Source: a candidate division WOR-1 bacterium RIFOXYB2_FULL_37_13 (GTDB lineage: Bacteria > Margulisbacteria > WOR-1 > XYC2-FULL-46-14 > XYC2-FULL-37-10). Taken from it: a stretch of DNA of 64,000 nucleotides. Location: contig MEUB01000036.1 of the NCBI GenBank assembly GCA_001771535.1, positions 842 to 64,841 of the forward strand, in the 5' to 3' direction. This document shows positions 19,238 through 38,633 of this stretch, in pieces. The notes under the pieces were generated by a model. It was not told where the DNA came from. It saw only the letters and a program-made list of their open reading frames with translations, and did not search any database. Positions within the stretch are counted from its first letter, which is position 1. Each line of letters opens with the position of its first letter. A program made the translations under genes and the position numbers.

Positions 19238-20038
19238 TCATTGGAAATTGGACATTGGAAATTGGAAATTGTTCCCAAACATCTCTCTCATCTTACCCAA
19301 TACATCTTCACTTTTCAACAAGCTCTCCCCTATTAGGACGGCAGAAAAGCCGGCAGACTTGAGTTCGTCTATTTGAGATTTCTCGCTTATACCGCTTTCA
19401 GAGACCAAAATCCTTGATTTGAGTTCTGGGAATTTATCCAGCAATTTTAAAGAATTATTAAAATCGACTTTTAGAGTATCAAGGTTCCTGTTGTTTATTC
19501 CTACAATATCACAATTTAAAGACAATGCTTTTTCAATATCATATTCATCGTGAGTTTCAAGAAGGACTTGGAGCCCAAGCTCTTTAGCTTTTTCAAGGAA
19601 TCTTGAAAGATCAGGCAATTCTAAAATCCTAGCAATAAGCAGAATTGCATCAGCCCCTGCAATGCGCGATTCTGTTATTTGAAGTTCATCTATTATAAAA
19701 TCTTTGCGGAAAACAGGAAGTTTTACCGCGGCTCTTACCTGTTTTAGAAAGCCTATTTCACCTTGAAAATATGTTTTGTCGGTAAGAACAGATATTGCAA
19801 AGGCACCTGAAGATTCGTACTGTTTGGCAATTGAAACGGGATCAAAGTTTTTGACAATAATACCAGCGGAAGGAGAGGCTTTTTTGATTTCGGCAATAAG
19901 GGAAATTTTATTTTCTTGATTGATGGAAGACTTAAAGTCCCGCAAGTTAGGATCAAACTCCGTCTTAGCTGTTGCCAATCTTTCTTTTAAAGCTTCGATC
20001 TCTTTTCTTTTAGTTAAAATTATTTCATCGAGGATCAT
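19238..20038 (-). CDS. trpC: indole-3-glycerol phosphate synthase; the C-terminal ~11 codons are encoded by the heptanucleotide repeat tract
   Basis: [22 protein letters not shown] motifs of TrpC. Confidence 0.8.
19241..19271 (-). repeat. heptanucleotide tandem repeat (TTGGAMA)x4.5 on the plus strand, i.e. (TKTCCAA)n on the gene strand, at the trpC 3' end / trpB 5' leader
   Basis: ttggaaa ttggaca ttggaaa ttggaaa ttg read directly. Confidence 0.85.
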
Positions 20039-20111: not shown

Positions 20112-20477
20112 ATGTCAACTTTAGCAGATTATAAAAAGTTTTGGTCAAGAAAATTCAAAGAAGACGAAAAAGCAAAAAAGAAGAAAATAAAACTTTTTAA
20201 GCAGCTTGCATCTGATGCAGCAAATATTTTAATAAAAGATTTTAAAGCCAAAAAGGTTTATCTCTTTGGATCAACTTTGGATGAAAAAATCTTTCATGAA
20301 AAATCAGACATAGATTTGGCAGTTGAAGGATTAAATCCTAAAATACATTTTTCCGCATTATCTGAAATAAAAAAACTGCTTTTTAAAAAAGCAAATGTAG
20401 ATCTTGTCCCTATGGAAGATGCATCGGAAGCACTTAAAGCATTAATTTTCAAAAAGGGAGAAATCTTATATGGCTAA
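20112..20477 (+). CDS. nucleotidyltransferase domain protein (MNT-type, minimal NTase)
   Basis: LFGS...SDIDLAV signature (GS-x9-13-DxD); 8-bp overlap with a downstream HEPN-like partner. Confidence 0.65.
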   Translation: MSTLADYKKFWSRKFKEDEKAKKKKIKLFKQLASDAANILIKDFKAKKVYLFGSTLDEKIFHEKSDIDLAVEGLNPKIHFSALSEIKKLLFKKANVDLVPMEDASEALKALIFKKGEILYG

Positions 20478-20943
20478 ATTTGAAGGACTGATTATAGATA
20501 TAGATTTAGAACTTCAAAATCTTGATCGATTAACTATGGAGCTTGGTCAAACAACACAAGAGATAAAAGAGATTCCGGATTATACGCAGATAAGAGCTAT
20601 TGGCAGTATTTTACATGATTTTTATACAGGACTTGAGAAAATTTTTGAAAGAATCGCGTTAACCATAGATGGAGGAGTTCCTGAAGGTGATGATTGGCAT
20701 ATTCAACTTTTACGCCGAATGCTTGCCAATATTCCAGACCGCAGACCTGCCTTATTTACAAAAAATGTTGGAGAGTCTTTAGGCGAATATCTTAGCTTTA
20801 GACATCTTTTTAGAAATATTTATGGTTTTGAATTAAAATGGGAGCGTATGAGTCCTCTTGTTGAAAAATTCCCTTCTGTTTTCAAAGAAGTTGAATCTCA
20901 ACTTATGAAGTTTATAAACTTCATATCAGAAATACAAAATTAA
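20470..20943 (+). CDS. HEPN domain / nucleotidyltransferase substrate-binding (HI0074-like) partner protein
   Basis: helical ~157-aa protein immediately downstream of the MNT gene with 8-bp overlap; R-x-x-x-x-H-like segment (FRHLFRN). Confidence 0.45.
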   Translation: MAKFEGLIIDIDLELQNLDRLTMELGQTTQEIKEIPDYTQIRAIGSILHDFYTGLEKIFERIALTIDGGVPEGDDWHIQLLRRMLANIPDRRPALFTKNVGESLGEYLSFRHLFRNIYGFELKWERMSPLVEKFPSVFKEVESQLMKFINFISEIQN

Positions 20944-20988
20944 GTATAAGAATCCTCATTCACTTAATACCTTTTTTAAAAAATAACC

Positions 20989-29226: not shown

Positions 29227-29474
29227 AGCGCAGTTTTTTCCCCTGAAGGATTAATATTCCAGGCATTTATAGCTACCCTTTTTGGGTTTTTTGGATCAAC
29301 CTTAACGGGGATAACGGCTCCCAACTGGATAAGAGAAAGCCCCATTAAAGGAATCAAAAATTTGTTTTCTATAATATAATATTCGAGCTTGTCCGTCAAC
29401 TCCCAGTCTTGTCTAATGCAAGATGTCCCTGAAGTAAAGACTGTTTCTAACGCAAAATGTCCCTGAAATGTCAT
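29223..29474 (-). pseudogene. C-terminal fragment of a DUF3592-like paralog split by IS insertion
   Basis: ...LIPLMGLSLIQLGAVIPVKVDPKNPKRVAINAWNINPS matches the intact paralog; the N-terminal residues are encoded by the IS inverted repeat. Confidence 0.7.
29228..29375 (-). repeat. ~150-bp tract nearly identical to 33229..33378 (3' region of the DUF3592-like paralogs)
   Basis: CTGAAGGATTAATATTCCAGGCATTTATAGCTACCCTTTTTGGGTTTTTTGGATCAACCTTAACGGGGATAACGGCTCCCAAC(T/C)GGATAAGAGAAAGCCCCATTAAAGGAA shared with only a few mismatches, while the flanks are diverged. Confidence 0.75.
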
Positions 29475-30862: not shown

Positions 30863-31158
30863 CTCGGTTGTTTGGAGAAGATGGCCACTGCTTTTTTTAA
30901 AATATCTCGCTCCAACCTGGCCTCTGCCAACTCTTTTCTTAAACGCCTGATTTTAAGAGATTCCTCAATCCCTCCGCTTGTTTCTCCGTCTTCTCCCTCT
31001 CTTCGATCACGTTTTTGCCATCCATACAGCGTACTCGATGACACTCCTAAATCTTTAGCAATTGAGGCTACAGGTCGCTTGCTGGTATTAATTAAATCCA
31101 GCGTTTCCCTAATGAAGTCCTTATCACACCGTTTATATGGTCCTTTCTTTTTCCCCAT
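30859..31158 (-). CDS. IS3 family transposase OrfA (HTH)
   Basis: IS3/IS911-type HTH (VASIAKDLGVSSSTLYGWQK) and leucine zipper. Confidence 0.8.
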   Translation of the reverse strand: MGKKKGPYKRCDKDFIRETLDLINTSKRPVASIAKDLGVSSSTLYGWQKRDRREGEDGETSGGIEESLKIRRLRKELAEARLERDILKKAVAIFSKQPR

Positions 31159-31227
31159 AAAATCCCCCCCCTCTAATATATTATCAAAATCTCTAATTAC
31201 TGTGTCTACTAAAAGGGGGGAGGGTCA

Positions 31228-31985
31228 CATATCGTGACAGATCAATTACTTTCACCAAGACTAATCCAAGGAAAATTAATATCGGCGAAAGAAAACGCCC
31301 TGAACCTCAAGGCAAGCCAGGCTATATCCGCGTAGATACTGTGCATCAGGGCGATTCCGACAAACAAAAAGGGGTCTATTATATAAATACTGTCGACGAA
31401 GTTACCCAATGGCAGGCAATTGCCGCTGTAGAAAAAATATCTGAAACATATTTACTCGAGGCTCTCTTAGGCTTGCTCAATCAATTTCCATTTGAAATCA
31501 TTGAATTTCATAGCGACAATGGTTCAGAATACATCAACAGACAAGTCGCAGAACTTTTAAACAGACTTTTAATTAAACTTACGAAATCTCGAGCTAGACA
31601 CTGTAATGATAACGCTTTAGTAGAGTCAAAAAATGGGGCTGTAATTAGAAAATGGATGGGCTATGCTCATATTCCTCAGAAACATGCCCAAGACATCAAC
31701 AAATTCTTTAAAAAATATTTTAATTTATATTTAAACTACTACAGACCTTCTATTTTCCCTGAAATTGTATTTTCTGCAAAAAGAAAAGAGGTCAAAAAAT
31801 ACAGATATGAGAATACAATGACCCCTTTCGCAAAACTAAAATCCATTTTTGAATACAAAAAGTTCCTCAAAAAGAATACTTCCGTCGTTGACTTAGAATT
31901 GTTTTTAAGCAATGATAGTCCTAATGAGTTTGCTGAAAAGGTGGTGAAGGCTCAAGATTGTCTCTTTAATGGCATTTCTACCTAA
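31228..31985 (+). pseudogene. C-terminal (DDE catalytic core) part of the IS481-like transposase, downstream of the nested IS3
   Basis: HSDNGSEY and CNDNALVESKNGAVIRKWMGY motifs (rve family); same frame as 29485..30000 once the 1256-bp IS3 and its 3-bp duplication are removed. Confidence 0.6.
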
Positions 31986-32878: not shown

Positions 32879-33739
32879 TTATATAGGCTTTTGTATACTT
32901 CCAGTCATAGCTATCATGACATGTGTTGGATCATTGTTGTCTATTTCACAAGGATATACAGCTCCCACTCTAATAAGTTGTAAGGCAACATCCGGCAAAG
33001 GCATCTCTTTATCAAGAACATATGGAGTTATTCCTTCTCCGGTTACCTCATATTTAAGAGAATAAACTTTTTGACCATTTTTTGTCTTTTCCGCATCGGC
33101 AAAACCCATTATCCTAGCCTGGCCTTTTTTTCCATTAACCACAACGCCTCGCTCCACATTCCCAGCAACCCCTAAATTTTGAAAATTTACAGGCATCCCT
33201 TGCATTATGGGTTGTCCTTGAAAATTTTGCGCAGTTCTTTTTTCTGAAGGATTAATATTCCAGGCATTTATAGCTACCCTTTTTGGGTTTTTTGGATCAA
33301 CCTTAACGGGGATAACGGCTCCCAACCGGATAAGAGAAAGCCCCATTAAAGGAACCATAAATTTGTCTTCTACAATATAAGGAGGCTGGTTTGAGGTCGA
33401 CACTTCCAGTTTCAGTTTCATCATCGGTTGATTGTTTATTTGCGTTCCGGTCTGAATAACCTCCAAAATTCGCGCTTGCCCGTCAACTCCTTTTTCACGA
33501 AGTTCTTGATCACTAAATATCATTTTCCAGATTATTTTAATAGGGCCAATCAAAGAAGGAATAACAAAAAAAATAATCGCAATAATAAATACTATCGGCA
33601 AAAAATCTATCGGACGCAAACTAAGTCCCATATCGACTCTACTTCTATAAATATTCAGAAAAACGGCCGGAAGAACACCAAAACAAACAACAATAAAAAC
33701 AAAAACAGAAGAAATAATTGCAAATTTTACTGATCTCAT
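32879..33739 (-). CDS. DUF3592-like membrane protein, intact two-domain paralog (286 aa)
   Basis: MRSVKFAII..RSRVDMG..SDQELREKG..GAVIPVKVDPKNPKRVAI, then a second degenerate copy (VGAVYPCEIDNNDPTHVMI); RBS GAGGTG. Confidence 0.65.
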   Translation of the reverse strand: MRSVKFAIISSVFVFIVVCFGVLPAVFLNIYRSRVDMGLSLRPIDFLPIVFIIAIIFFVIPSLIGPIKIIWKMIFSDQELREKGVDGQARILEVIQTGTQINNQPMMKLKLEVSTSNQPPYIVEDKFMVPLMGLSLIRLGAVIPVKVDPKNPKRVAINAWNINPSEKRTAQNFQGQPIMQGMPVNFQNLGVAGNVERGVVVNGKKGQARIMGFADAEKTKNGQKVYSLKYEVTGEGITPYVLDKEMPLPDVALQLIRVGAVYPCEIDNNDPTHVMIAMTGSIQKPI

Positions 33740-33815: not shown

Positions 33816-34715
33816 ATGGATACATTCCACCTGCCTGTAATGGCAAAAGAGATAGTTAATTTTCTCTCCCCTCTTAACGGAAAAACAATCGTCGATTGTA
33901 CGGTGGGTGGAGGGGGACACATCTCAAAACTAATATCCAATATCCAATTTCCAATTTCCAATGTCCAATGTCCAATGTCCAATTTCCACATCATAGCTAT
34001 CGACCAAGACCAGGAAGCTCTTGAGTTTGCTAAAAAACGATTGGCTAAATATGACAACATTGAATATATCCATGACAATTTTGGCAACTTGGCAAATATA
34101 ATAAAAGAGTCTGTTGATGCTTTTCTCTTTGATCTTGGCATTTCATCATACCAGATAGACCAGGCTTCCCGCGGTTTTAGCATACGATACGATGCGCCTC
34201 TTGATATGCGAATGGACAAAAGTAAACAGACATCCGCTCGCGAAATAATCCACAATTCAAGCGAGGATGAATTAGCGCAAATTTTCAAAGAGTATGGTGA
34301 AGAGCGGTTTTCAAGAAGAGTTGCCCGCGCGATTGTCTTGGAAAGAGACAAAAAAGAGATAAACACAACATTTGAGCTGAAAGATATAATAGAGAAAGCA
34401 ATCCCCACATGGAAAAAGAGAGAGTCTGTTACCCGCATATTCCAAGCACTCCGAATTGCTGTTAATTCAGAGCTTGATGTTTTAAAAAAAGCTCTGGAAT
34501 CAACAATCCCTTTACTTAAACCGGAAGGGAAAATAATCGTAATGTCGTATCATTCATTGGAAGATCGAATTGTTAAATGGTTTTTCAGAGATAAAGCTAA
34601 AAATGGTATACTTAATATACTTACAAAAAAGCCTGTTCTTGCGACAGAAGAAGAGACTGCAATTAATCCAAGGGCAAAAAGCGCTAAGTTGCGGTGCGCT
34701 GAAAAGAACAACTAA
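33816..34715 (+). CDS. rsmH: 16S rRNA (cytosine1402-N4)-methyltransferase RsmH, with a ~10-residue in-frame insertion encoded by a heptanucleotide repeat
   Basis: GGGGH, IAIDQD, FDLGISSYQID, DMRMD motifs of MraW/RsmH. Confidence 0.85.
   Translation: MDTFHLPVMAKEIVNFLSPLNGKTIVDCTVGGGGHISKLISNIQFPISNVQCPMSNFHIIAIDQDQEALEFAKKRLAKYDNIEYIHDNFGNLANIIKESVDAFLFDLGISSYQIDQASRGFSIRYDAPLDMRMDKSKQTSAREIIHNSSEDELAQIFKEYGEERFSRRVARAIVLERDKKEINTTFELKDIIEKAIPTWKKRESVTRIFQALRIAVNSELDVLKKALESTIPLLKPEGKIIVMSYHSLEDRIVKWFFRDKAKNGILNILTKKPVLATEEETAINPRAKSAKLRCAEKNN
33935..33990 (+). repeat. heptanucleotide tandem repeat (NTCCAAT)x8 in frame inside rsmH
   Basis: atccaat atccaat ttccaat ttccaat gtccaat gtccaat gtccaat ttccaca read directly. 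Confidence 0.85.
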
Positions 34716-38147: not shown

Positions 38148-38633
38148 ATGAAAAAATTTGTTATGCTGCTATCTATTTTTGTCGCTGGGGTTATTGTTTT
38201 GGGTTTACCGGTATCTGCCGCATGGAGAGGCACTGAAGGAAGAGAAGCTACGAGGCGAACCGTTGGGAAAGCTGCTGTAAAAGAATCTGGAAAAACAACA
38301 GAAGATATCAGAGGAAGATCAGGGAGAACTGAAGGAAGAAGAGCTGTTGGAAAAGCAGCTGTAAAACAGTCCGGGAAAACAACAGAAGATATCAGAGGCG
38401 TTGAAGGAAGACAGGAGACAAGAAGAACCACCAGTAAAGCGATTCTTAAAGAATCTGGAAAAACAACAGAAGATATCAGAGGAAGATCAGGGAGAACTGA
38501 AGGAAGAAGAGCTGTTGGAAAAGCAGCTGTAAAACAGTCAGGGAAAACAACAGAAGAGATAAGAGGGGTTGAAGGAAGACAAGAATTCAGACAAGAGGTA
38601 GGCAAAGACGTCTACGAAGAGACAAAAGAATAA
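38148..38633 (+). CDS. secreted basic tandem-repeat protein (about five 28-aa repeats ...GKAAVKxSGKTTEDIRG...)
   Basis: strong RBS AAGGAGGG, signal peptide MKKFVMLLSIFVAGVIVLGLPVSAAW, repeat-encoded body; the antisense ORF 38105..38605 is a shadow. Confidence 0.7.
   Translation: MKKFVMLLSIFVAGVIVLGLPVSAAWRGTEGREATRRTVGKAAVKESGKTTEDIRGRSGRTEGRRAVGKAAVKQSGKTTEDIRGVEGRQETRRTTSKAILKESGKTTEDIRGRSGRTEGRRAVGKAAVKQSGKTTEEIRGVEGRQEFRQEVGKDVYEETKE
38245..38600 (+). repeat. tandem DNA repeat, 84-bp unit in a 168-bp higher-order period, coding
   Basis: GAAGATATCAGAGGAAGATCAGGGAGAACTGAAGGAAGAAGAGCTGTTGG... recurs 168 bp apart (38301 and 38469). Confidence 0.8.

Follow-up and report, generated by a model that had tools for sequence, protein, structure and literature searches.

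A tandem repeat with a unit of seven nucleotides (nt) lies inside the reading frame of rsmH (mraW) in a 64,000-nt stretch of DNA (contig MEUB01000036.1, positions 842 to 64,841; hereafter the window) from the candidate division WOR-1 bacterium RIFOXYB2_FULL_37_13, and it raises the question whether a gene for an rRNA-modifying enzyme can be switched on and off by the gain or loss of repeat units. The original prediction, made from the sequence alone, regarded the repeat as a potential slipped-strand switch and also as a propagating element inserted into the gene. The first of these proposals was borne out in so far as the copy number differs by a single unit between near-clonal assemblies and RsmH is truncated in the 7-unit allele, and a near-clonal groundwater population carries intact and frameshifted versions of rsmH that are one repeat unit apart. 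We consider it probable that the tract is a slippage-prone coding microsatellite, which has persisted and been homogenised in a permissive loop of the enzyme and whose expanded form in this species switches the gene on and off.

The heptamer tract in rsmH and its two alleles

The rsmH gene occupies positions 33816..34715 of the plus strand, and its open reading frame (ORF) is predicted to code for a 16S rRNA m4C1402 methyltransferase of 299 amino acids (aa). The product matches the Pfam family PF01795 (MraW/RsmH) with an E-value of 6.4e-98 and 328.5 bits (cut-off 27) over profile positions 2-308 of 309, and the homologs 1M6Y, 1WG8 and 3TKA were retrieved from the PDB, all with E<=1e-49. Together with this full-length profile match, the presence of motif I for binding S-adenosylmethionine (SAM), the acidic residues of strand beta2 and a fold as in the solved RsmH structures place the protein in the RsmH family.

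Inside this gene, Tandem Repeats Finder (TRF) reported an imperfect heptanucleotide microsatellite at 33932..33988 (+) with 8.1 copies of the unit AATNTCC, 94% matches and a score of 79, which codes for residues ~40-58 and shows a period-7 autocorrelation of 0.85; the repeat that had been predicted at 33935-33990 is therefore real. Read in the TCCAATN register from 33936, the tract has seven complete units, in which N is A, T, T, G, G, G and T, and then a partial TCCA. Its longest perfect stretch, recovered by a perfect-array scan, is the 27-nt core (TCCAATG)3TCCAAT at 33957..33983 (+). A two-unit pattern with at most one mismatch occurred 10 times in the window against 0.97 expected matches, a count reached by 0 of 100 shuffles, and nine of these ten matches fell either into the rsmH tract or into a second tract at 19240-19271 in the trpC gene, with one match elsewhere. 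SAM-binding motif I (GGGGH) lies on the 5' side of the tract at 33906..33920 (+), with G31, G33, G34 and H35 invariant and G32 conserved in at least 90% of a 94-sequence alignment. Strand beta2 with the sequence IIAIDQD follows on the 3' side at 33990..34010 (+), containing the conserved acidic residues D63 and D65, which are both invariant. Translation of the ORF confirmed that the tract lies between GGGGH and IAIDQD and codes for the 19 residues originally assigned to it. We found 0 inverted repeats in the tract and no single-strand structure was predicted for it (DNA fold of -0.2 kcal/mol, z = +1.2), and a hairpin or other structural role was rejected on these grounds. As a simple tandem repeat inside a reading frame, with a unit not divisible by three, the tract has the basic design of a contingency locus.

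Further assemblies were gathered via the neighbouring ftsL-like gene, and the comparison of these consensus assemblies showed that the copy number varies. Eight units were present in six assemblies (the window, L003, L013, L015, L017 and L018), whereas three samples contained 7 units (L001 from ERZ27254852, L002/L012 from ERZ27254812 and L014 from ERZ27254748). L015 (ERZ27254750) belongs to the same k141 assembly series as the 7-unit contigs. A scan of metagenome contigs of the Joint Genome Institute (JGI) with species-specific flanks gave 0 matches in a collection without these samples, though JGI contigs with the locus exist. In the alignment of the 67-kb contig L001 to the window, which covers 6748 bases, there were 0 mismatches and the only gap was one of 7 bases. 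L012 and L014 likewise differed from the window by one 7-base gap on the same background. The missing unit belongs to the run of three identical TCCAATG copies (placed at 33957-33963 by alignment and BLAST). The population is nearly free of single-nucleotide polymorphisms (SNPs), and the repeat is by far the most mutable local site. The tract is also not shared identically by all relatives, as the sister species RIFOXYA2_FULL_36_21, whose RsmH is 86% identical to that of the window, has a different and non-periodic sequence; a fixed insertion, the outcome that would have spoken against a variable tract, is thus not what we observed.

If translated from the rsmH start, the 7-unit allele ends with ...NVQCPISTS* after 57 aa, the stop at codon 58 being an in-frame TAG at 33994..33996 (+; L001 translation). 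Judging from this truncation, the 7-unit allele is expected to be an rsmH null allele. An in-frame ATG (Met54) provided by the repeat itself at 33975..33977 (+) was called as the start of a 246-aa protein (P0003) in the 7-unit contigs, according to the gene coordinates of L001/L002. It shares 100% of its residues with the C-terminal portion of the window RsmH and is devoid of SAM motif I, for which reason we predict that it has no activity. The case illustrates that heptamer tracts yield split or truncated gene calls in metagenome-assembled genomes (MAGs), such as this 246-aa "RsmH". As at established contingency loci, the copy number differs on near-identical DNA and the out-of-frame allele truncates the product.

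One of the 8-unit assemblies, L003, represents a slightly diverged strain with 15 substitutions clustered at 34315-34468 (~150 nt) of rsmH. Because this diverged strain also has 8 units, we regard 8 units as the ancestral in-frame state. Several of the residues resulting from the substitutions in L003 match the sister species, and the cluster resembles a short tract of recombination between these two species, which co-occur. A truncated gene call of the sister species (P0125) was considered as a second frameshift case and rejected, as the call was cut short by Ns filling a scaffold gap and by the end of a contig.

In the AlphaFold2 model of the window RsmH (94 homologs), the mean predicted local distance difference test score (pLDDT) was 92.4, and residues 41-57 formed a coil between helix 34-40 and strand 58-63, with pLDDT means of 56 and 74 for the 10-residue blocks. 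Moreover, the alignment to MraW of T. maritima (1M6Y) opened an 11-residue gap exactly at the repeat-coded segment. Because of this low-pLDDT coil and the gap versus 1M6Y, the repeat is predicted to code for a permissive, disordered surface loop of RsmH. The designation of rsmH as an "essential-type" gene went too far, since an E. coli delta-rsmH strain is viable, with a doubling time ~15% longer, increased non-AUG initiation and decreased UGA read-through (PMC2831307). Because rsmH is conserved yet dispensable in E. coli, null alleles at high frequency are plausible.

The RsmH loop in relatives and outgroups

The closest homologues of RsmH, and also those of TrpC, were annotated as candidate division WOR-1, Saganbacteria or Margulisbacteria; Margulisbacteria/Saganbacteria are the sister lineage of Cyanobacteria. 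Among 120 close homologs, the segment from GGGGH to beta2 most often comprises 12 low-complexity residues, e.g. TENIKIQNPKSK, AENVKCQMSNVK or SLQIKNQKSKIK. The DNA of this ingroup was represented by four distant homologs from Margulisbacteria/Saganbacteria (57-60% protein identity) and the sister species. At the DNA level, all four distant homologs contain a heptamer array at the same position of rsmH. A Saganbacteria MAG (L146) carries a perfect (AATGTCA)x4 array, L147 has (AAAATCC)x3 plus a partial unit, and L148 and L149 contain four degenerate heptamer units each. The period-7 autocorrelation of the loop ranged from 0.51 to 0.79 in these four loci, next to the 0.85 of the window. The periodicity is lost in the sister species (L019:1501-1720), whose loop contains a 14-nt direct repeat, GGAAGGCAAT(G/A)TCC, around a small palindrome.

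As an outgroup, we collected 80 rsmH loci from other phyla (37-47% identity) and measured the 47 in which the motifs were located. The segment from GGGGH to beta2 was usually SEAILxxLxxxGR-like and was 12-13 residues long in 43 of them, compared to 23 residues in the window RsmH, which together with the 11-residue gap versus 1M6Y agrees with the original estimate of a loop about ten residues longer than in canonical RsmH. No period-7 signal was found in the 47 outgroup genes (mean autocorrelation 0.26, none >=0.5). In addition, we determined for each peptide the fewest mismatches to any perfect heptamer array coding for the last 9 loop residues (27 nt). Three or fewer mismatches were needed for 38 of 89 distinct ingroup loops versus 0 of 46 outgroup loops, with medians of 4 and 8, respectively, and the units inferred for the ingroup form one family, NTC(A/C)AA(A/T), which is one substitution away from TCCAATN. 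With 23 residues versus the usual 12 or 16, the window allele is ~3-4 units above the usual size, seven additional residues corresponding to three additional units.

On this sequence comparison, the heptamer-coded loop of rsmH is best regarded as a character of the clade. Because the units are homogenised within lineages, slippage appears to continue, and because distant orthologs carry arrays of other units at the same site, the rsmH tract seems to have arisen in place. The notion of a simple insertion should accordingly be replaced by that of an expansion of an already heptamer-coded segment, as L146-L149 show arrays and not an empty site. A presence/absence polymorphism as for a mobile element was not observed, with arrays at the same site in 4 of the 4 distant orthologs examined.

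A different type of loop sequence was noticed in the homologs P0008, P0018, P0048, P0057, P0069, P0105, P0027, P0031 and P0060, which contain 'SPSPSGRGG…' or '(S/L)PAG' peptides. These look like translated palindromic elements, and it seems that repetitive DNA has a general hotspot in the RsmH loop.

Tolerated slippage, selected switching or a spreading element

We propose that the loop is coded in this clade by a short array, typically of ~4 units of the NTC(A/C)AA(A/T) family, and that replication slippage keeps the units alike within each lineage. In this species, the array would have expanded to 8 units, an in-frame gain of ~10-11 residues. Since 7 cannot be divided by 3, slippage by one unit would shift the frame, and the loss of one TCCAATG would lead to the stop at codon 58, ahead of beta2 and all that follows in the enzyme, and thereby to an rsmH null allele. 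The frame would be restored if the unit were regained or if the net change came to a multiple of three units. In principle, m4C1402 methylation of 16S rRNA could be switched ON and OFF reversibly at this site, with methylation presumably lost in the OFF state.

Most likely, the on/off variation is tolerated as a by-product of a microsatellite that perpetuates itself in a dispensable gene, and the locus is not a proven selected contingency locus. We lean towards tolerance over selection because similar arrays occur in essential genes elsewhere and because the typical arrays of the clade are short. Thus, in-frame heptamer arrays are present in the LeuRS and Mur ligase genes of Patescibacteria, where an on/off switch is implausible. 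Several observations weigh against our interpretation. Only two allele states, 7 and 8 units, are represented, both from consensus assemblies, and a single assembly series (MEGAHIT k141) is the source of all three 7-unit contigs. The clonality of the population makes one origin of the 7-unit allele inseparable from recurrent slippage, and an attempt to tell them apart by the SNP background proved impossible with essentially no SNPs present. The DNA of the clade consists of four distant homologs and a sister species in which the periodicity is lost. Finally, persistence of the array across ~57%-identical RsmH proteins is hard to reconcile with neutral slippage alone, and selection for the repeat could be involved. 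If switching is not selected, the locus still represents a clean case of a coding microsatellite that persists and is homogenised over deep time in a permissive loop.

The strongest competitor to tolerated slippage is a true contingency locus, which we regard as possible but distinctly less probable. The heptamer tract would then be selected lineage-wide in the rsmH genes of Margulisbacteria/Saganbacteria for stochastic switching of m4C1402 at the ribosomal P-site as a form of bet-hedging, and the resulting ribosome heterogeneity would act on start-codon stringency, growth and possibly the susceptibility to ribosome-targeting compounds. Retention of the array at one site in 57-60%-identical relatives, with perfect units in some lineages, is in line with this idea, as is the clear contrast between ingroup and outgroup in the period-7 and peptide tests. 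Among 9 independent assemblies of this clonal population, 3 show the OFF allele as their consensus, so that this allele is not rapidly purged, and the loss of RsmH in E. coli gives a mild and specific translational phenotype (PMC2831307). Reversible frameshifts in housekeeping genes are also known, e.g. in the homopolymer tract of M. tuberculosis glpK, for which experimental proof of both reversibility and phenotype is described in bioRxiv 10.1101/717272 and PMC10334774. Like the rsmH tract, the glpK tract is an indel-prone repeat in a core non-surface gene that causes a heritable loss of function, which in rsmH would be reversible as well, but it is a homopolymer and not a heptamer array. Selected switching is harder to reconcile with the typical arrays of the clade, which have ~4 often degenerate units and would switch slowly, and with the sister species, which has lost the repeat. 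Furthermore, essential genes of other phyla, for which switching cannot be an adaptation, contain in-frame arrays as well, and the presence of a tract does not equal selection. If switching is selected after all, it would create heritable and reversible ribosome heterogeneity via rRNA modification, and a lineage-wide contingency gene would provide an example of phase variation from free-living uncultured environmental bacteria. In this case, rsmH would, to our knowledge, be the first gene for an enzyme of rRNA modification with phase variation.

Repeat-driven ON/OFF switching is textbook knowledge for surface and restriction genes of host-adapted pathogens, and we know of hardly any documentation of it for core translation genes or uncultured environmental lineages. 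The contingency loci based on simple sequence repeats (SSRs) in Haemophilus, Neisseria and Mycoplasma (mod/lic/opa-type genes) share with the rsmH tract a non-triplet tandem unit, slipped-strand gain or loss of units (the probable mechanism here), frameshifts between ON and OFF, and copy-number polymorphism among near-identical genomes. However, they affect surface, restriction-modification or lipopolysaccharide genes of host-adapted bacteria, whereas the tract described here lies in the gene of an rRNA-modification enzyme of a free-living uncultured groundwater bacterium, is imperfect with three identical units in a row, and has a position conserved in relatives sampled across the lineage. 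Repeats of 7 bp as such are on record at hmw1A of H. influenzae (PMC8262952). SSR-mediated frameshift variation is therefore a kind already known; what is unusual is the class of gene, the habitat and how deeply the repeat site is conserved.

We consider it highly improbable that the repeat entered rsmH and other sites as a propagating element, be it mobile or homing. This proposal started from the occurrence of the unit at a second locus of the window, which we confirmed on the minus strand at 19240-19271 with the same T/G variation of the seventh base. The wide distribution of the unit also fits a spreading element. A scan for TCCAATN across phyla, using one genome per species, returned arrays of (TCCAATN)>=3 in at least 120 DNA stretches (L026-L145; example loci are L027, L029, L034, L042, L051, L065, L070, L095 and L110), often in frame in housekeeping genes. 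The matches listed came from Patescibacteria, Chloroflexota, Bacteroidota, Acidobacteriota, Gemmatimonadota, Proteobacteria, Verrucomicrobiota and a spirochaete, and their arrays had 3-25 units with a mostly uniform seventh base. Among the listed matches from Patescibacteria were in-frame ISNFQFPISN inserts in a GT4 glycosyltransferase, LeuRS, Fmt, MnmA, PGM/PMM, a Mur ligase, UvrD and DprA, and among those from Chloroflexota, a TCCAATC variant yielded SNLQSPI. Patescibacterial ORFs of ~1 kb with TCCAATT arrays were rejected as rsmH genes, as they gave only low-complexity matches with phmmer.

The arrays of other units at the same rsmH site in distant relatives speak against spreading, since they imply that the tract arose in place, as does the lack of inverted repeats, predicted structure and flanking duplications. 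An over-representation control, which was run in a collection of viral contigs and not in the host genome, gave 54 hits for TCCAATN, within the range of four composition-matched control heptamers (30, 27, 112 and 91 hits). As the control heptamers were about as frequent in these contigs, a special cross-phylum element is unsupported, and together with the orthologous arrays this leaves little support for a propagating element in rsmH. Instead, independent microsatellite formation across phyla is the simplest reading, and the cross-phylum arrays probably reflect a general phenomenon of heptamer SSRs. Both TCCAATN arrays in the window are translated. A 7-nt unit gives the same 7-residue periodic peptide in all three frames, and TCCAATN is free of stop codons on both strands for every N, which is true of only 4 of the 90 orderings of its hexamer. 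An element that inserts in frame into protein genes would have a counterpart in the dispersed, palindromic and mobile elements of Rickettsia that Ogata et al. reportedly described in 2000. These resemble the rsmH tract in adding a repeat-coded peptide to a surface loop of a housekeeping enzyme, where it is tolerated by the fold; unlike them, the rsmH tract is a direct tandem repeat without inverted repeats that arose in place.

Heptamers favoured by particular lineages provide a closer parallel. They include TAACTGA in Beggiatoaceae, Cyanobacteria and Bacteroidetes (PMC4679880), a cross-phylum case that lends some support to spreading, as well as GGGAATC in Xanthomonas, GGGGAYT in Nostoc and the STRR heptamers of Calothrix cited in the same work (PMC4692102). 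Favoured heptamers such as TAACTGA and GGGAATC have no known mechanism of spread (PMC4679880, PMC4692102), and heptamers are the most abundant long SSR class in many prokaryotes according to Mrazek et al. (2007), as cited in both papers. The repeat studied here shares with the TAACTGA and STRR types the 7-nt tandem unit and its presence at more than one locus. In contrast, the latter lie for the most part between genes, with tens to hundreds of them per genome, whereas our two arrays within 64 kb are translated and TCCAATN was not over-represented versus the control heptamers.

An assembly or sequencing error as the source of the 7-unit allele, which would leave the tract a fixed and stable in-frame insertion, fits the origin of every 7-unit contig from one MEGAHIT k141 series but is similarly improbable, because the 57-nt tract is shorter than the k-mer of 141 and spanned by single 141-mers and reads, three separate samples agree on the identical 7-unit sequence while a fourth sample of the series has 8, and the deleted unit lies inside the perfect triple repeat, where slippage is expected.

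The trpC tract and other repeats in the window

The second tract of the window, detected by TRF and the pattern scan at 19240..19271 (-), consists of (TCCAATN)x4.6 on the coding strand of trpC (19238-20038, -; Pfam PF00218), codes for an 11-residue C-terminal tail and runs into the TGA stop codon. An identical TrpC protein is present in the candidate division WOR-1 bacterium RIFOXYC2_FULL_37_10. Only 2 of 120 TrpC homolog tails contained the heptamer-peptide pattern, namely the species' own protein and P0229. The homolog tails that were printed end at about …KIKELFG, and TrpC of the sister species has 254 aa versus 266 aa here. No variation of the trpC tract was found in ~22 contigs, all of which had 4 units and a TrpC of 266 aa. 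These included a set anchored by the neighbouring gene, which avoids a selection for the tail, and both sets gave 22 contigs. The trpC tract is species-specific and stable. The stability of this short tract of mixed units and the instability of the long rsmH tract with its three identical units fit the prediction from slippage.

In L146 and L148, trpC is the immediate divergent neighbour of rsmH, whereas the two genes are 14 kb apart in the window, both with TCCAATN. Transposase fragments (HTH_Tnp_1, rve) are located at ~30968-31985, just upstream of the rsmH region, and suggest, together with the separation of trpC and rsmH, a rearrangement. Next to trpC, we noticed a pair of genes for a nucleotidyltransferase (Polbeta/NTP_transf_2) and a HepT-like protein at 20112-20950 (+), which looks like a toxin-antitoxin module of the MNT-HEPN type.

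Two further repeats were observed in the window. A hypothetical 286-aa gene upstream of rsmH (32879-33739, -) contains a 152-nt segment at 33229-33380 that is 94% identical to 29228-29379, ~4 kb away, and this pair may represent a paralogous gene or a duplicated domain. In addition, TRF reported a tandem repeat with a period of 84 nt at 38262-38566 (3.6 copies, 72% matches, score 363), which is probably a coding repeat with a period of 28 residues.

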